DNA of 64,000 nt from a virus, in IMG/VR virus record IMGVR_UViG_3300025121_000776, positions 64,001-128,000 of that record; one strand, written 5' to 3'. Each line of letters opens with the position of its first letter. The first letter of the stretch is position 1. The notes beneath the pieces were generated by a model. That model searched no databases and was not told the origin of the DNA. It saw nothing but the letters and a program-made list of their open reading frames with translations. This document shows positions 5,026-61,549 of this stretch, one piece after another. A program made the position numbers and the translations under genes.

Positions 5026-5093
5026 ATCTAATAAATATAGAAATAAACTTAATTTTCAAATTTTTTTTTCGTATATTTGCAAAAAGGCGATTT

Positions 5094-6784: not shown

Positions 6785-8737
6785 ATGGCAAAAAGGGAAA
6801 AAATAAAAAAAGAAGCAGAAGCTCAAGCAACTGATTATGTTAAAATAAGAAAACTAAGAGTAAATTTCGAATTAAGATACAATTACTCGAAAATACTTAC
6901 GGAATATATTAAGCGATTGCCCAAAGAACATAGAGCCGTTAGAAAAGATAGCGTCATTGGAATGGATGGATTACCTAAAGATGACTGGGTAAGAACTATT
7001 AGTGAAGTTAAAATGGGCGAAATTTTATCTTTTCTGATTGATAATAAAATAAGATTCGTTTTCGAAAATATTACTCCAGACGTATTAGAAAGACTCAGAA
7101 ATGAATATATAGAAAGGCAAAGAAAAATTGCGGAAATCTTAAGGTTAAAAGCTGAACAACTCGATGTCTCTGGAGAAGACTATTCCTTCATGAAAATAGA
7201 ACCTTATGAATATCAAAAAAAGGCTATAAAATTTTTCGAAATTAACGATGGAATTTCTATATTAGGGGACCAGCCTGGTGTTGGAAAAAGTTGTCCTGCA
7301 ATGAGTTACGCAGTAAAATACAAATTTAAAACCTTGATTGTTTGTCCTGCCACTTTAAAGCATATGTGGAGAAATGAAATTATAAAATTCACAAATGAAA
7401 AAGCATTCATTTATAAATTTAAACCAAAAAAGAAAAGTAAAACTATCGCATTTACAAAAGAAGAATCGCTTTTTCACATCACAAACTATGATTCGATAGA
7501 AACTTACATTAAACTTGAATATCGCCATAAATGTAGTGGAAACATACTTCAAGCCAAAGGGGGAATGGGAAAGTGCGCTTGGGAACAAACAGACTTGATA
7601 AAAAATTATAAAAAATGTCCTATTTGTGAAAATACAGGCTCAGTTAAATCAAGAATTACAGGGGTTGTATATTTTGATGACAAATTTGACCACGAAATAA
7701 ATCCAGAAGATTATGATTTAATCATCATTGATGAATGTCATAGAATGAAGGAAATGAAAACAACGTGGACAAAGATAATTCATAAAGCATTTGCGAAAAT
7801 TCCAAAAAAAATATTGTTATCTGGAACTGTAATTAAAAGTAGACCCTTTGAATTTTTTTCAACTTTAAGTTTTATAGACCCAGAAGAATGGAAAAACTCT
7901 CACGAATTCGGAGTCCGCTACTGCGCAGGATTTCAAGATAATTTCGGCTGGGATTACGGCGGAGCATCAAATCTTGAAGAATTGTTTACCAGAGTTTCTC
8001 GTTATTTTTTAAGAAGACTGAAAAAAGATGTTTTAACAGAACTTCCTCCTAAAACATATCTTGATATTCCAATTGAACTTGACGACAAAGAATATTCCGA
8101 ATATCTGAAATTAGAAAATGATATAAAAAAAGAGATTGTTGATGGAAAGGAAATTGAGAAAAAGGATTCTTATTTAGCTAAAATACACAAACTTAAAATG
8201 TTTACTGGAAGGATTAAAGTTCAACGAGTAAAAGAAATGATTCAAGATATTGTTGATAGCGGAGAAAAAGTCGTTGTTGTTTCTGATTATATTGAAATGG
8301 CCGAAGAAATTGCCAAAGAATTTGGGGATGCAGCAGTTTTACACACTGGAAATATGAATGACGTAGAAAAGCAAGAGTCGGTTGATAAATTTCAAGAGAT
8401 TGCTGGCATAAAAGTATTTGCTGGGATGATTATAGCTTCGGGGGTTGGTATTACTTTGACCGCAGCTAGTAAATTAATAGTAATAGGATTTCCTTGGACA
8501 CCAGGGGAATTAGAACAAATACACGATAGGATTCACAGAGCTGGTGCTACATCAGATAATATAGAAATATTAACGCTAATATGTCGAGACACCATTGATG
8601 AAGATATTGTAGATTTATTAAATGATAAATCATTCATAATTTCAAAAACATTAGATAATGTAGAGTTCAAAAGAGAAAGTAAAATAGTAGAGGAAAGCAT
8701 TTTTAAAGAATTGCTTAAAAGAATAAAAGGAAAATAG
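6785..8737 (+). CDS. SNF2-family helicase with an inserted Zn ribbon
   Basis: GDQPGVGKS, DECH, LSGT, RRLKKDV, QIHDRIHRAG; four-Cys insert before motif II. Confidence 0.92.
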   Translation: MAKREKIKKEAEAQATDYVKIRKLRVNFELRYNYSKILTEYIKRLPKEHRAVRKDSVIGMDGLPKDDWVRTISEVKMGEILSFLIDNKIRFVFENITPDVLERLRNEYIERQRKIAEILRLKAEQLDVSGEDYSFMKIEPYEYQKKAIKFFEINDGISILGDQPGVGKSCPAMSYAVKYKFKTLIVCPATLKHMWRNEIIKFTNEKAFIYKFKPKKKSKTIAFTKEESLFHITNYDSIETYIKLEYRHKCSGNILQAKGGMGKCAWEQTDLIKNYKKCPICENTGSVKSRITGVVYFDDKFDHEINPEDYDLIIIDECHRMKEMKTTWTKIIHKAFAKIPKKILLSGTVIKSRPFEFFSTLSFIDPEEWKNSHEFGVRYCAGFQDNFGWDYGGASNLEELFTRVSRYFLRRLKKDVLTELPPKTYLDIPIELDDKEYSEYLKLENDIKKEIVDGKEIEKKDSYLAKIHKLKMFTGRIKVQRVKEMIQDIVDSGEKVVVVSDYIEMAEEIAKEFGDAAVLHTGNMNDVEKQESVDKFQEIAGIKVFAGMIIASGVGITLTAASKLIVIGFPWTPGELEQIHDRIHRAGATSDNIEILTLICRDTIDEDIVDLLNDKSFIISKTLDNVEFKRESKIVEESIFKELLKRIKGK

Positions 8738-8896
8738 TATGACATAACTTCATTAGATTAATGGTAAAATATTTGTTTATAATAGAAATACGACTATTTT
8801 TATGAGATGAAACGGCTTTAATATTTTTAAATTTATTAAATTATACGAAAAATATATAAAAAAGTTGCAGTTATTCATAATATCGTTTTTTTTTAA

Positions 8897-8904
8897 TATT
8901 TATA
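8897..8904 (+). promoter_or_regulatory. putative late promoter TATTTAT[A/T] (representative copy)
   Basis: Recurs a short distance (mostly 10-30 nt) upstream of about 20 virion-type genes on both strands. Confidence 0.6.
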
Positions 8905-8924
8905 GAAAATAAAAATCTATTGCT

Positions 8925-9482
8925 ATGAAAATTAAAAAATCTTTAGTAGAACAAATAATTAAAGAAGAGGCTATAAAAATTAAAAAGCTTATTGTCCTTA
9001 AAGAAGAAAAAGAAAATATTCTTAAACAACTTAATGAGTTGTATGAAGAAAATCTTAGTGAAGAGACGCTTGACGAGTGGAATCCATTTGCAAAAGCAGA
9101 CCCAGCAGCAGTTGCGGTACAAGCTCAACCTTTAATAGATGCCTTAAAAAGTCAAACTGCAAAATCTTTTTTTACTCAACTACTTAAAGTGGACCCAAGT
9201 TCAGTTGTAAATCTTATAAAAATTTTTAAAGAAAGAGTTGCATCTAGTCAAGCAAAATTAGCAAAACTTCAAGAAGCTATGCAAGTTAGTTTTGAAAGAG
9301 CTCTTGCTTATATGAAAGCAGTGGCAGCAGCTCCAATAACTACAAATCTTCAATGGGATGAAACAAAACAAAAATATACCGATTTAGCACCCGCTCTTGG
9401 AAATGCAGCTGGAGCTGTAGGTGGTTATTCACAAACTAAGATAACTCCACCACAAGCTAATCCAACCCCACCACAAGCTTAA
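8925..9482 (+). CDS. putative virion/head protein
   Basis: N-terminal LVEQIIKEE helix; late motif at 8897. Confidence 0.55.
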   Translation: MKIKKSLVEQIIKEEAIKIKKLIVLKEEKENILKQLNELYEENLSEETLDEWNPFAKADPAAVAVQAQPLIDALKSQTAKSFFTQLLKVDPSSVVNLIKIFKERVASSQAKLAKLQEAMQVSFERALAYMKAVAAAPITTNLQWDETKQKYTDLAPALGNAAGAVGGYSQTKITPPQANPTPPQA

Positions 9483-12649: not shown

Positions 12650-13729
12650 ATGGAACAGTCACAATTAACGCCAGCTCAAATAGAAGTGATAAGACAACAA
12701 AGAACACAGCGTTTTAAAAGCATGGGTTTACCAGCCACAGCTGGTCAGCTTGCAGATATGCCAATTGAAAACATGCCAACTCAAAGAGTTGCTGTAGCAC
12801 CAACACCTGTTGTCGAAGAACAAGTTCGCCCACAGCAATATGTTCAATCAAAATATGCTCAACAACAAGTTCAACAACCACAATATGCTCAGCAGGAACA
12901 AAAAGTTGCAGGCATAGAAATGGAAAATGGGGCTAATATTGCCCAACAAATACAAATTCAATTAGCAGAAGAAAAACAACAAAGTCAAGCCGCTATGTAC
13001 ACTGCTCCAAGAGATAGATATAGTGCATTGGAAGCAATTAAGAGGGGGGCAAAAAAACAAGAGATTGGCGTTTTTATTAAAGCAGAAACAAAAGGAGTAA
13101 AAGGAGAACAGTTGCCAGAACCTAAAGTTGGAAAAAGAAAGCCAGTAAGACCTGGGCAACCACAAGAAAAGCCAAAGGTGTCAATAGCATTAGAGGGGAC
13201 AAGGGCCTCAAGAAATGCAGAGGCAGACGCACTTGAAAATATGTTTACAGACAAAGCTTCTGGAATCAGCATGCGCTCAACTTCTGGAGTGCCACAAGGC
13301 AATTTAATTACTGAAGATTATTCAAGTATAGGACCCACTTTTGACCCAGTAGCTCACTTAAAAAAGAAAGCCGCAGATAAAGGCGTAATGTTAGATTTGC
13401 CGTCACAAAGACAACAGCCACAGCAAAATCAAGTATTTCAACAAGCAAGTAATAATGATTTTATGTTAAATCAAATGATGCTGATGATGGAGACAATGAT
13501 GAAAAACAACCAAAAAAGTGGTAGTTATGATTTAGAGTCTTTGAAACCGATGATAGAAGCTACAGCAAAAAAAGTTGCTGAAGATACAATAAGAAGAGTT
13601 TTAAAAGAGTATGCTGACAATCAAAAGAAAAAAAATGTTTATGAAGTCGTAAATCAAGAAAAAAAAGTCGTAAGAATAGGGGATAAACTTTACAAACTAA
13701 CTCCAGTGACAATTAAATCTCAACTGTGA
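12650..13729 (+). CDS. Q-rich hypothetical protein
   Basis: Long ORF; its TGA stop lies in the GTGAAC end of the adjacent mobile element. Confidence 0.8.
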   Translation: MEQSQLTPAQIEVIRQQRTQRFKSMGLPATAGQLADMPIENMPTQRVAVAPTPVVEEQVRPQQYVQSKYAQQQVQQPQYAQQEQKVAGIEMENGANIAQQIQIQLAEEKQQSQAAMYTAPRDRYSALEAIKRGAKKQEIGVFIKAETKGVKGEQLPEPKVGKRKPVRPGQPQEKPKVSIALEGTRASRNAEADALENMFTDKASGISMRSTSGVPQGNLITEDYSSIGPTFDPVAHLKKKAADKGVMLDLPSQRQQPQQNQVFQQASNNDFMLNQMMLMMETMMKNNQKSGSYDLESLKPMIEATAKKVAEDTIRRVLKEYADNQKKKNVYEVVNQEKKVVRIGDKLYKLTPVTIKSQL

Positions 13730-13928
13730 ACAAATAATTAGCAAAGCCAATTAAATTTCCACGTTGCAAGCACAACCTATTGGTTCACTTTTAATTATAA
13801 ATATGCAAAAAATTTATAAAATCGAATTTATTTGTAACTATTTTAAAAAAATTTTGTATAATTGTAAAAACAACAGCAATTCATCCAAGTCACACTTCGT
13901 TATGACTTGGTTTTTTGCTGAAAATCTT
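13726..13928 (-). mobile_element. non-autonomous IS200/IS605-derived element (MITE/PATE-like), copy 1
   Basis: Minus strand: TTTGT|AAGATTTTCAGC left end, hairpin CCAAGTCA/TGACTTGG followed by GATGAATTGC, right-end hairpin and terminal GTTCAC; about 150 nt aligns with 60174-60514. Confidence 0.75.
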
Positions 13929-14439
13929 ACAAATCATCAATAGAAAAGTTATTTGTAAAAATAACTTTTAATGTAGGTGTAAATTTAACCTCTCCAGCAT
14001 ACCATTCTTTAAGAAATTGTTGGGGAGTTTTCTTTAATTCTACCACTCCTCTTTGGGCGACAACTCCATATATTTGACCATTCCTGCATAATCTAATCAA
14101 ATTACTTTGACTATATATTGAATTAACAAATACAACCCATTTGTTTTTTATTGCACTTTCTATATGTTGTGTAGTGTGACAAGATTTACACAAAGTTACT
14201 CCCTTTGTTAATTCTGGTTGAGTTTTATTAACCTCATATATGTGAAAAAATAAACAATCTTTTTTTCTGTGGTCTGGAGGAGTGTGTCCGCACCCAGAGC
14301 AACGACCTTTATCTATTGCAAAAGCCTCGCCGCTTAATTTATCAAACAATTCTTGCCCATAATCTTTAATAAATGCCTTTTCTGGATAATTGTTTGACAC
14401 AGATAAGGCAAACTGTCTTACTAATTCTTCTTCTCTCAT
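13927..14439 (-). CDS. HNH-type endonuclease-like protein
   Basis: CSGC...H...TLCKSCHTTQH; TATATTTG promoter at 14444-14451 (minus). Confidence 0.7.
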   Translation of the reverse strand: MREEELVRQFALSVSNNYPEKAFIKDYGQELFDKLSGEAFAIDKGRCSGCGHTPPDHRKKDCLFFHIYEVNKTQPELTKGVTLCKSCHTTQHIESAIKNKWVVFVNSIYSQSNLIRLCRNGQIYGVVAQRGVVELKKTPQQFLKEWYAGEVKFTPTLKVIFTNNFSIDDL

Positions 14440-58718: not shown

Positions 58719-59858
58719 ATGCAAAAACCACCAATTAAACTAAGAGAAATTATCTGGGAAATAACTGGACAATGTTTTAATAATTGTTCATATTGTGGCT
58801 CAAAAGATGTGTCTAAAAAAGCCCTTACACACGAACAAATCATTGACATTGCTCAAGCTATTGCTGATTTTCCCCCAAAAGAAATTAACATAAGTGGAGG
58901 AGACCCATTAACTCTTCCAGCTGACCTTCATATTGAAATTTTAAGGATTTTAAAACAGTCAGAAATAGTCTGCAAAATTATTGTTAATCCAAAATCCATT
59001 AAAAACCCATTATCTGCAGCTTTTGAAATTGTTAAAATGTATGATTGGGCTGGAATTTCTATTAATACCCAAAAAGAATTACAAATCTTTGAAGATATCG
59101 CAGAAACTAAAGAATATGAAAATTACACCGTCATAACAAATTTTAACATTCAAAATCTTTATCAATTTGAAGAAATTGAAGCGTTTGTTAAAAAATATGA
59201 TAAAATGTGGACAATTCAATTTACAGTTTATCAAGACAAAGATAATCCACTTGCTTTATACCATCCAGATAATCAAATTGCTTTTGAATTATTACAACAA
59301 AAGGTTAATACAAGTTCAGCAAAAATAGTTCTATCAGACAATATAAGAAATGATATGCCTTGCGGTGCTGGATTTAGCTCTGTAGGCATCACATATGATG
59401 GTTATGTTATTCCATGTTTAAGTATGAGAAGTTGGAGGGATATTCAAAATTTATGTGAAAAAGAAATATATCAAAATATTTTAAAAACTCCTTTTGAGGA
59501 AATTTGGCAAACATCTTTTATTAATGAAAGATTTTGTAAATTTGAATGTTGCAAAGACATATGTCTCAATAAAACTCTCGAAATAAAAAGTTTTGAAAGA
59601 AAAGTATTTGAGATAACTCCAAAGTCTGAAGAAGAAAAAAAAGATTGGGAAAAAAACATTAATGAATTTTTAAAAAAAGTTAAAAAGGAAAATCCTCCAT
59701 TTGATGCAGGGCAAGTTGTTATGTATGGGGTTATTTCTCCAAGAAATTTTCCAGGTGGTGGCGGAGTTGTTATGTATGGGGTCATTTCTCCAAGAAACTA
59801 CCCTCCCGATGACGACAATGGCGGCGGAATTGTTTTAATGTATGGTGTATTTAGGTAA
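58719..59858 (+). CDS. radical SAM/SPASM enzyme with a C-terminal tail of three MYG repeats
   Basis: CFNNCSYC, ISGGDP, CGAG...GYVIPC; tail VVMYGVISPRN x2 plus VLMYGVFR. Confidence 0.88.
   Translation: MQKPPIKLREIIWEITGQCFNNCSYCGSKDVSKKALTHEQIIDIAQAIADFPPKEINISGGDPLTLPADLHIEILRILKQSEIVCKIIVNPKSIKNPLSAAFEIVKMYDWAGISINTQKELQIFEDIAETKEYENYTVITNFNIQNLYQFEEIEAFVKKYDKMWTIQFTVYQDKDNPLALYHPDNQIAFELLQQKVNTSSAKIVLSDNIRNDMPCGAGFSSVGITYDGYVIPCLSMRSWRDIQNLCEKEIYQNILKTPFEEIWQTSFINERFCKFECCKDICLNKTLEIKSFERKVFEITPKSEEEKKDWEKNINEFLKKVKKENPPFDAGQVVMYGVISPRNFPGGGGVVMYGVISPRNYPPDDDNGGGIVLMYGVFR
59715..59858 (+). repeat. coding repeat, 51-nt period (VVMYGVISPRN) plus a third diverged copy
   Basis: GTTGTTATGTATGGGGTYATTTCTCCAAGAAAY at 59715 and 59766; ATGTATGGTGTA at 59838. 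Confidence 0.92.
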
Positions 59859-59888
59859 TCTCTTTTCTTAATTGTTATATTTGTTTCT

Positions 59889-59916
59889 AAAAAATCCTCC
59901 AGTTGGAGGATTTTTT
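59889..59916 (+). terminator. intrinsic terminator
   Basis: AAAAAATCCTCCA / TGGAGGATTTTTT. Confidence 0.85.
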
Positions 59917-59945
59917 CTCTATTTATTGTATATGCATATACTGCT

Positions 59946-60110
59946 ATGGAAAATAAAATAGATAGAAAAACATGTGAAAGTTACTTGCAAAACATTAGAA
60001 ATGGAAATAATTTCTATAACAAAGAAACAATAGATGATATGATTAAGTGTTACATTGAAACCGAGGAATATGAGAAATGTAATGAACTAATAAAGATAAA
60101 AGAAAAATAG
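59946..60110 (+). CDS. 54-aa protein with a UVR-like C-terminus
   Basis: YIETEEYEKCNELIK; late motif at 59920. Confidence 0.6.
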   Translation: MENKIDRKTCESYLQNIRNGNNFYNKETIDDMIKCYIETEEYEKCNELIKIKEK

Positions 60111-60112
60111 CT

Positions 60113-60573
60113 ATGGAATATAAAAAAACTATTCGAAAATATATAAAAGAAGCTATTGACGATTTACTGCCAGGTGAACTGACCCACTCACAACTTTATT
60201 GATGAATGGGCTTCTTTGACGTTTCTCAGACTCGTCTTATGACCGATGCCTCACCGCCTTTTTGTTTATCCTGCGAAGAATGTCCCTTATCCTCCACAGC
60301 AATGCTTTTTTGTTTTTTAGATTTTATAGCAAACAACAATTCGTTTGCCAACCACAATATCTCAAAGAACTTTAAATTAAATATATTAAAATTTTATAAA
60401 AATATAAACACTTTTGTGAAACTATTTTAAAATAATTTCGTGTATTTGTAAAAGTAATGGCAACTTATCCAAGCCACACTTTGTGATGACTTGGTTTTTT
60501 TTGCTGAAAATTTTATAAATGGAGAAATTCCACAGAAAATAAAAGATTTATTAAATTTGTCTTAGAGCTATAA
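60113..60573 (+). pseudogene. small late gene interrupted by the IS605-derived element
   Basis: Removing 60174-60514 gives a 39-aa ORF, MEYKKTIRKYIKEAIDDLLPDKWRNSTENKRFIKFVLEL. Confidence 0.5.
60174..60514 (-). mobile_element. non-autonomous IS200/IS605-derived element, copy 2, with omegaRNA-like right end
   Basis: Minus strand: TTTAT|AAAATTTTCAGC left end with CCAAGTCA/TGGCTTGG hairpin; right end GCTGTGGAG...GAAGCCCATTCA...TGAGTGGGTCAGTTCAC typical of tnpB 3' ends. Confidence 0.8.
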
Positions 60574-60628
60574 CATTTTTTAGTTTTTTTCGTATATGTT
60601 AAAAACATGTACAATTAAATCAAAAAAA

Positions 60629-61549
60629 ATGTCACAAGGAAATTCGCTAAAAGCTGTAGTTGTTGCATTATTTAGCAATGCATTTATCGCACTAATCAAA
60701 TTTATAGTTGCATTTATAACTACCAGTGCCGCTATGATGGCTGAAGCGATTCACTCTACTGCAGATTGTATGAACCAAATATTTTTATTAATTGGGTCTA
60801 AGAGAACCAAAAAAGTAGCCAATGAGCAACATTCTTTCGGATATGGAAAAGAAGAATATTTCTGGGGATTTATTGTTGCAACATTATTGTTCTTTGTTGG
60901 GGGTGGTTTTTCTATTTATGAAGGAATTCATAAGTTGTTTGTTCCAGAGCCAATTAAAAATGTTATGTTATCCTTTATCGTTTTAGGAATTGGAATAGTC
61001 TTAGAATTCAACTCGTTTAGAATTGCTTATAATCAATTTAAAATTAAAAATAATTCATCCTTTTACAAAGGACTCATTGAAGTGACCGATACAAATCTTT
61101 TGGTAATTTTACTTGAAGACTTTGCGGCATTACTTGGATTAATAGTTGTTTTAATTACCACTATTTTAGCTTTTACAATAGCTCCTATATTTGATGCAAT
61201 TGGTTCCATACTTGTGGGTGCAATTCTTATTTCAATCGCTTATATGCTCTCTAATGAGCTCAGAAAATTAATTGTTGGAGAAAGCATTCCTAGAGAAATA
61301 AGAACTGATATAAAACACATCTGCTCACAGCATAATAAAATTGTTAAACATGTAAATAAAATTCAAACAATGTTTATTGGCAGAGAAAAATTTGTTCTTC
61401 TTATATCTTTGGATGTTTATGATAATATTTTAGCATATGATGTAGAAAACATAATTGAACACATAAAACTCGATATTATCAAAAAATATCCCAATGCTTC
61501 GGTTATTTATATTGAAGTAAAGGATATGATAAGAAATAATAAAATTTAA
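60629..61549 (+). CDS. cation diffusion facilitator (CDF) transporter
   Basis: AEAIHSTAD, HSFGYGKEEY, LLEDFAA, D in TM5; an alternative start at 60596 is possible. Confidence 0.9.
   Translation: MSQGNSLKAVVVALFSNAFIALIKFIVAFITTSAAMMAEAIHSTADCMNQIFLLIGSKRTKKVANEQHSFGYGKEEYFWGFIVATLLFFVGGGFSIYEGIHKLFVPEPIKNVMLSFIVLGIGIVLEFNSFRIAYNQFKIKNNSSFYKGLIEVTDTNLLVILLEDFAALLGLIVVLITTILAFTIAPIFDAIGSILVGAILISIAYMLSNELRKLIVGESIPREIRTDIKHICSQHNKIVKHVNKIQTMFIGREKFVLLISLDVYDNILAYDVENIIEHIKLDIIKKYPNASVIYIEVKDMIRNNKI

Follow-up and report, generated by a model that had tools for sequence, protein, structure and literature searches.

An ORF-less IS200/IS605-type element with a candidate TnpB omegaRNA in a large uncultured phage

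A 341-bp segment of a large uncultured phage is very probably an ORF-less derivative of an IS200/IS605 transposon (a PATE) that carries a TnpB omegaRNA, as judged by sequence comparison. The best overall explanation, to which we assign a probability of about 65%, is a guide-bearing mini-transposon whose RNA would be used by a TnpB acting in trans. That the omegaRNA is actually made and put to use by a TnpB is a separate claim, with a little less than an even chance of being true. Large uncultured phages commonly carry members of the same transposon lineage. The source is IMG/VR virus record IMGVR_UViG_3300025121_000776 (186,855 bp; 57% complete according to CheckV). The window, that is the whole stretch of 64,000 nt that was analysed, comprises bases 64001-128000 of this record, and all positions given below are window positions.

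Ends and anatomy of the element

An earlier note had placed an ORF-less IS200/IS605 derivative with an omegaRNA-like right end at 60174-60514, directly after TTTAT. These boundaries are exact to the base, as copies with different flanks confirm, and the assignment itself stands on the TTTAT flanks, the hairpins and the homology to tnpB 3′ ends. The main features are as follows.

60515-60519, minus strand: TTTAT target motif, the presumed TAM, directly 5′ of the left end; at least 17 different insertions have it at the close of their left flank
60174-60514, minus strand: the whole ORF-less IS200/IS605-type element, 341 bp, with boundaries set by comparing copies that have different flanks
60469-60494, minus strand: left-end subterminal hairpin CCAAGTCA...TGGCTTGG with one G.T pair; homologues in other copies
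60378-60408, minus strand: predicted promoter-like site TTTATA-17-TATATT (60408-60380) with TATATTTA (60385-60378), the latter kept among copies
60362-60370, minus strand: boxA-like motif GTTCTTTGA, with which the conserved RNA begins; shared by 19 of 27 non-redundant copies
60328-60349, minus strand: stem 1 hairpin GCAAAC...GTTTGC, then TAAAATC; kept with different stem sequences in other ORF-less subfamilies
60174-60305, minus strand: predicted omegaRNA scaffold core, from a full-length covariance model match, covariation and alignment to a tnpB-bearing relative (L068)
60181-60214, minus strand: right-end subterminal hairpin GCCCATTCA...TGAGTGGGT with two G.T pairs, from folding and compensatory changes
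60158-60173, minus strand: flanking 16 nt, the candidate guide CTGGCAGTAAATCGTC; homology among copies stops exactly here
59889-59916, no strand: palindromic terminator-like hairpin with A and T runs on its sides; on the minus strand no other terminator-like site lies between it and the guide
13726-13928, minus strand: second, reduced copy of 203 bp without the omegaRNA core; left-end region 78% identical, a short hairpin, then GTTCAC

Read along the minus strand, a hairpin is followed by an AT-rich stretch and then by a GC-richer block from about 60370 to 60174, ending GAAGCCCATTCA...TGAGTGGGTCAGTTCAC, with AGTTCAC (60180-60174) as the right terminus of the element. The higher GC content, claimed before, amounts to 44-47% over 60150-60300 against 16-30% in the surroundings. 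Within the scaffold core the order is stem 2 (with a GGGAC loop), an A-rich linker, the CGGTGAGGC junction, stem 3, GTCTnnGAAACG, the right-end hairpin and AGTTCAC. Neither of the longest internal ORFs, 74 aa on the plus and 43 aa on the minus strand, has a Pfam match, and a coding reading of the GC-rich island was dropped for this reason. A riboswitch or leader was also discarded, as there is no downstream minus-strand gene here or in the closest relative found (G003), and ARAGORN finds no tRNA or tmRNA in the region.

The element is flanked by CCATTTAT and CTGGCAG without a target duplication and its ends lack terminal inverted repeats. The TTTAT target, the subterminal hairpins and the missing target duplication are hallmarks of IS200/IS605 elements. 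The circle expected on excision would join GTTCAC to AAAATTTTCAGC. Folded as RNA, 60160-60410 reaches -59.6 kcal/mol (z -3.13) on the minus strand and -34.5 kcal/mol (z -0.19) on the plus strand. The predicted preference of both end hairpins for the minus strand is borne out, with -16.1 against -12.8 kcal/mol on the complement for the left end and -15.4 against -8.2 kcal/mol for the right end; the two hairpins have similar loops.

Hairpins of this kind raise the question of whether the fold acts only as single-stranded DNA recognised by TnpA and not as RNA. The transposase of IS200/IS605 elements acts on hairpins in one DNA strand (PMC10055086), G.T pairs form in DNA too, and a strand bias fits either nucleic acid. 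This reading is nevertheless very unlikely. TnpA needs the two subterminal hairpins only, whereas the internal junction of ~130 nt is the part in common with tnpB 3′ ends and has a promoter-like site and a boxA-like RNA signal in front of it. In addition, the reduced copy at 13726-13928 keeps the ends without the core.

This reduced copy accounts for the only recurrence in the record, which is confined to the AT-rich left part of the element (13787-13934, 78% identity); the covariance model R1 described below gives no significant match at 13726-13928. It sits between two convergent genes and its target motif is TTTGT, not TTTAT. The left junction TTTGT/AA forms the TAA stop codon of the minus-strand gene 13927-14439, and the plus-strand gene 12650-13729 takes its TGA stop, together with the third base of the codon before it, from the right end, which reads GTGAAC on that strand.

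The predicted signals for transcription lie upstream of the scaffold. The boxA-like motif directly follows the promoter-like site, and its pattern G[TC]TCTTT[AG]A, found at the frequency listed above, is expected 0.007 times per search window. The motif of the element matches GTTCTTTAAAA, the boxA of a Legionella CRISPR leader that has been shown to raise transcription of a long non-coding array (PMC7862264); in G003 the motif is identical to this boxA. A second promoter candidate, TTTACA-17-TAAAAT at 60452-60424, was dropped because the conserved site is TATATTTA at 60385-60378. Past the guide there is no terminator-like site on the minus strand for ~260 nt, until the hairpin at 59916-59889. 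With up to 3 mismatches allowed, the tail CTGGCAGTAAATCGTC matches nothing else in the 186,855-bp record, which fits the classical arrangement where the sole target is the element-free allele.

The earlier note also saw the element as interrupting a small late ORF that is restored on excision. Removal of 60174-60514 does leave an open frame of 39 codons; neither a restored ORF nor its lateness is supported. Roughly 1 in 5 random joins would stay open for 39 codons, as estimated from the AT-rich base composition. None of the three relatives G001-G003 encodes the joined 39-aa peptide, nor do they have a counterpart of the 54-aa neighbour.

The scaffold and its homologues

A link to a nuclease gene is provided by a tnpB-bearing locus, L068 (near-duplicate L072), in which a 384-aa ORF ends inside the same scaffold. 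The protein of L068/L072 contains HTH_OrfB_IS605 (E 1.6e-19), OrfB_IS605 (3.5e-27) and Cas12f1-like TNB (1.3e-24) domains. The scaffold of L068 consists of a stem with a GGAG loop (GGGAC in the window), an A-rich linker, CGGTGAGGC, a short stem, GTCTATGAAACG, a right-end hairpin and GCTCAC, beyond which the DNA is unrelated. The left end of this locus follows TTTAT and carries a like hairpin. Alignment of the window scaffold with the 3′ end of the L068 tnpB yields 75 identical bases and a score of 81, compared to 39.6 +/- 5.6 in 500 dinucleotide shuffles (z 7.3). Similarity to IS605 ends, on which the identification depended, is seen in the TTTAT flanks, the subterminal hairpins and the ends of tnpB-bearing sisters.

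A covariance search had been proposed as a check and it finds the scaffold. The model R1 was built from L068 and 11 copies of the GTTCAT type, leaving out all sequences of the window subfamily. It matches 60174-60305 (minus strand) over its full length with 57.5 bits (E 5e-11) and with all helices intact, the next best match in the window reaching 13 bits. There is one match in the whole record and one in G003. R1 also scores 107 bits at the 3′ end of a further TnpB gene, L084 (400 aa; the protein is 57% identical to that of L068). R1 gives the L068 and L084 scaffolds 84-107 bits against 57.5 bits for the window scaffold, which belongs to a sister subfamily.

Rfam, by comparison, returns no match at the gathering threshold (whole window) or at E values up to 10 (59800-60800, in the island). 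Two other tnpB loci (L016, L017) have no Rfam match either, and Rfam may lack this omegaRNA clade.

The stems covary. Two-sided changes occur in 7 of 13 predicted pairs of the MAFFT alignment, which is independent of the model. In the alignment that was fitted to the model, 96.6% of the cells are paired, compared to 76.7% in shuffles and at most 41% with the partners slid, and 17 of 24 modelled pairs show two-sided changes. Eight variants of the five-pair stem 3 are seen, the two outer junction pairs come in ten combinations and are paired in all 27 sequences, and the inner right-end helix of the model has compensatory changes in 9 of 9 pairs. The ORF-less copies of the window's subfamily share one 5′ architecture yet differ by compensatory changes, which suggests that the fold has been kept after the loss of tnpB, given a single origin of the ORF-less form.

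These changes bear on the possibility that the same element is inert here, a selfish mini-transposon moved by an outside TnpA with the omegaRNA a leftover of a recent deletion that no nuclease now uses. This has a smaller but appreciable probability. It is consistent with a record that encodes no tnpB or tnpA and holds only one full and one decayed copy in 186 kb, and the persistence of the 203-bp copy at 13726-13928 implies that the RNA core is not needed to persist. Against this, the ORF-less copies are of one architecture and their compensatory changes, located in stems 2 and 3, in the right-end hairpin and in the outer pairs of the junction, argue that the fold stayed under selection once tnpB had gone. 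The window scaffold is, moreover, full length with every helix intact.

Other phage TnpB clades are related by their ends. The loci L082, L087, L088, L089 and L083 encode proteins 23-51% identical to that of L068 and their internal scaffolds differ. All five genes end in nearly the same right-end hairpin, with GTAGTTCAT behind it or, in L083, GTAGTTTAC. Shared right-end hairpins combined with differing scaffolds suggest that one transposase specificity may be common to several nuclease and guide lineages.

Copies in other phages and the proposed mechanism

About 45 related copies are present in viral and metagenome contigs. They were recovered with two core patterns taken from the alignment of the window element and G003, which yielded 5 and 33 loci among viral contigs and another 25 among metagenome contigs; approximately 17 of the 25 metagenome loci carry all other motifs. 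Eight metagenome matches and the genome-contig matches L025-L028 lack the other motifs and were set aside as chance, as were the match L074 and the sole match of a right-end 17-mer, in a viral contig of high GC content. Among 185,579 prokaryote species, each represented by a single genome, the strict core pattern produces nothing but chance matches, and blastn against deposited phages gives no match.

Several copies have near-identical bodies in unrelated flanks (L039 and L044; L045 and L046; L034, L022 and L047; L024, L030 and L048). Similarity begins right after TTTAT, the motif that ends every readable left flank, and breaks off directly behind GTTCAC; a second large subfamily has GTTCAT at this place. 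Sharp limits of similarity with unrelated DNA beyond them identify 60174 and 60514 as the true ends of a transposable unit. Homologous left-end hairpins are found in L036, L041, L042, L044-46 and the tnpB-bearing L068. Up to 3-4 model matches occur on a single phage contig, and several contigs break within the scaffold, as is expected of a repeat in assembly. The recurrence of the same ends in dozens of contigs with different flanks is more than chance.

In one copy, L069 (~7880-8960, minus strand, contig IMGVR_UViG_3300025022_000018), and also in L070, a GIY-YIG and NUMOD3 homing-endonuclease ORF of 227 aa lies inside an ORF-less element of the family. It splits the A-rich linker of the scaffold between stem 2 and CGGTGAGGC. 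The element of L069 retains TTTAT, the left-end hairpin and the GTTCAC end, so that one mobile element is nested in another.

A fixed intergenic region in relatives, which the earlier note named as a refuting outcome, is not what the relatives show. The cation-efflux genes of G001-G003 abut other ORFs without any such region before them. In G003 (290,886 bp, 91% complete) the block of higher GC content has a homologue at 82241-82401, and ~10 kb separate it from the cation-efflux gene. The empty site proposed earlier, TTTAT joined to CTGGCAG, was not found as an allele in relatives, and the right-flank 23-mer is absent from the viral contigs.

Genes for the two enzymes were looked for in the record and in relatives. 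Pfam models detect no Cas12f1-like TNB, OrfB_IS605 or Y1_Tnp match in the 186,855-bp record (57% complete), and tblastn with three phage TnpBs finds none there; the earlier suggestion to look elsewhere in the genome for tnpA and tnpB is answered only in relatives, which have both. G001 encodes a TnpB of 409 aa. At the contig ends of G003 a Y1 tnpA of 132 aa (Y1_Tnp, E about 1e-38 to 5e-38) adjoins a tnpB. This IS605 element (L019 3-1048 and L017 1420-1662, both minus strand) is apparently autonomous, and the split of its tnpB across the ends of the linear contig indicates a circular permutation of the contig at this point. The left end of this IS605 element comes after TTTAC and is similar to that of the window element; the right end is not. 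A vague likeness by eye between the TnpB 3′ regions of G001 and G003 and the window scaffold is not supported by MAFFT or R1 and was rejected; the 3′ ends of these two TnpB genes are unrelated to the scaffold.

TnpB is encoded in 7 of the 12 phage contigs that have ORF-less copies, and one of the phages, G013, has an ORF-less and a TnpB-linked copy of the same scaffold type. Together with the tnpA-tnpB pair of G003 this makes a supply of TnpB in trans plausible. No TnpB gene was found with the window's own scaffold subfamily (GATAAACAAAAAGG...GTTCAC), the TnpB-linked copies belonging to sister subfamilies.

The preferred reading, a mini-transposon that works with a TnpB in trans, can be cast as a mechanism. 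The element inserted 3′ of TTTAT and retains both subterminal hairpins and an intact scaffold, which in its full-length sisters overlaps and follows tnpB. The internal promoter is predicted to start transcription near 60371, and the boxA-like motif at the 5′ end of the RNA could protect the untranslated transcript from early termination. The transcript would run out of the right end, its 3′ tail CUGGCAGUAAAUCGUC... becoming the guide. A TnpB of the matching clade, provided in trans by the unsequenced 43% of the phage, a co-infecting relative or the host, would then cut TTTAT followed by CTGGCAGTAAATCGTC, a sequence present only in the element-free allele. With an occupied copy as the repair template, the element would be retained after excision or would spread to a co-infecting genome that lacks it.

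The widest form of this idea is that a phage-restricted, guide-only lineage equipped with a promoter and a boxA lives off the TnpBs of sister elements and homes, RNA-guided, into empty alleles. This is speculative and on balance unlikely to be correct in full. If true, guide-only homing would be the viral counterpart of marker exclusion by homing endonucleases, with the TnpBs coming from sister elements in the same or co-infecting jumbo phages. A 2026 review treats "non-restorative homing" into co-infecting phages as a theoretical possibility only (PMC13565253).

Elements of this kind have been published, and the window element is not a new system. Protein-less PATE-like IS200/IS605 elements are known from Geobacillus; according to the same study, PATEs "often encode omegaRNAs" dependent on a TnpB in trans, and the TnpB2 of ISGst2 has TTTAT as its TAM (Meers et al. 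2023, PMC10055086). Like the ISGst PATEs of G. stearothermophilus (PMC10055086), the window element has no protein gene and combines end hairpins with a fixed pentamer (TTTAT, as in ISGst2) and a right-end omegaRNA. Both depend on TnpA and TnpB in trans, a dependence that is presumed for the window element. In contrast to the ISGst PATEs, it resides in a large uncultured phage, its lineage was found in the present searches only in viral and metagenome contigs, and a boxA-like motif marks the 5′ end of its RNA; the likeness rests on architecture.

The tnpB-only (IS1341-type) loci L068/L072 and L084 have the same scaffold architecture with the right ends GCTCAC (L068) and GTTCAT (L084), and L068 also shares the TTTAT target and a like left-end hairpin. 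They keep a TnpB of 384-400 aa that the window element has lost. A more distant comparison is offered by ISDra2, where the motif is TTGAT rather than the TTTAT of the window element. The reRNA or omegaRNA of the ISDra2 TnpB (Karvelis et al. 2021, PMC8612924) is likewise a right-end RNA with a 3′ guide derived from the flank and directs cleavage beside a target motif. The resemblance is one of principle, since ISDra2 encodes its nuclease in cis.

TldR-type guides (Wiegand et al., PMC10705468) are also guide RNAs of TnpB ancestry outside an active autonomous transposon. They lie beside a nuclease-dead protein and match a host promoter elsewhere (PMC10705468). Unlike these, the window element has no adjacent protein, its transposon ends are intact and its tail matches its own flank only. 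A domesticated guide of the TldR type does not fit, there being no second match with up to 3 mismatches in the record and no neighbouring TnpB homologue.

The documentation adds exact boundaries, the set of about 45 copies, compensatory stem changes, tnpB-bearing sisters and a candidate boxA. The family provides a clean natural test of whether guide-only elements work with a nuclease in trans and whether TnpB-based homing operates between co-infecting viruses. Together with its TnpB relatives (L068, L084), the scaffold would make up compact RNA-guided nuclease pairs with a TTTAT motif.

Genomic neighbourhood

The DNA of the record contains ~30% G+C and the majority of genes lie on the plus strand of the window. 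On one side of the element are two small plus-strand ORFs, 59946-60110 and 60113-60202, and on the other is a cation-efflux gene; the neighbouring genes encode a radical SAM enzyme and the cation-efflux protein (Pfam Cation_efflux, E 7e-38). In this position the element might be an exapted regulatory RNA or signal of the phage, either an antisense RNA directed at the small ORFs (59946-60202, plus strand) or a terminator that precedes the cation-efflux operon on the plus strand. A minus-strand transcript would indeed be antisense to the two small ORFs, and eight T come after the left-end hairpin when it is read on the plus strand, with the promoter-like motif TTTTTCGTATA beyond it at 60589. Still, this is the least probable of the alternatives. 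Copies exist in unrelated contexts and orientations in other phages, conservation ends at the transposon boundary and not at any target, the tail has no second match in the record, and a terminator scan did not call the left-end hairpin.

The hairpin and the T run occupy 60469-60502 on the plus strand, ~80 nt before the motif at 60589, and the insertion may also serve to terminate transcription of the plus-strand genes upstream of it. In other copies of the element a G interrupts the T run next to the left-end hairpin.

The motif at 60589, ahead of the cation-efflux gene, is a recurring promoter-like motif of this phage. The ATG listed for the cation-efflux ORF (60596-61549), at 60596, overlaps it. 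Relatives of the protein align from residue 10-11 only, and the true start is therefore probably the ATG near 60629. The motif forms part of an operon-front signature in the window, AACnTTTT, ~9 nt and then TTTTTCGTATA(AT), with sites at 5068, 34834, 39091, 42868, 54188 and 60589 on the plus strand and at 8849 and 36754 on the minus strand. The record has 13 copies of TTCGTATA on one strand and 7 on the other, compared to ~6.4 expected per strand.
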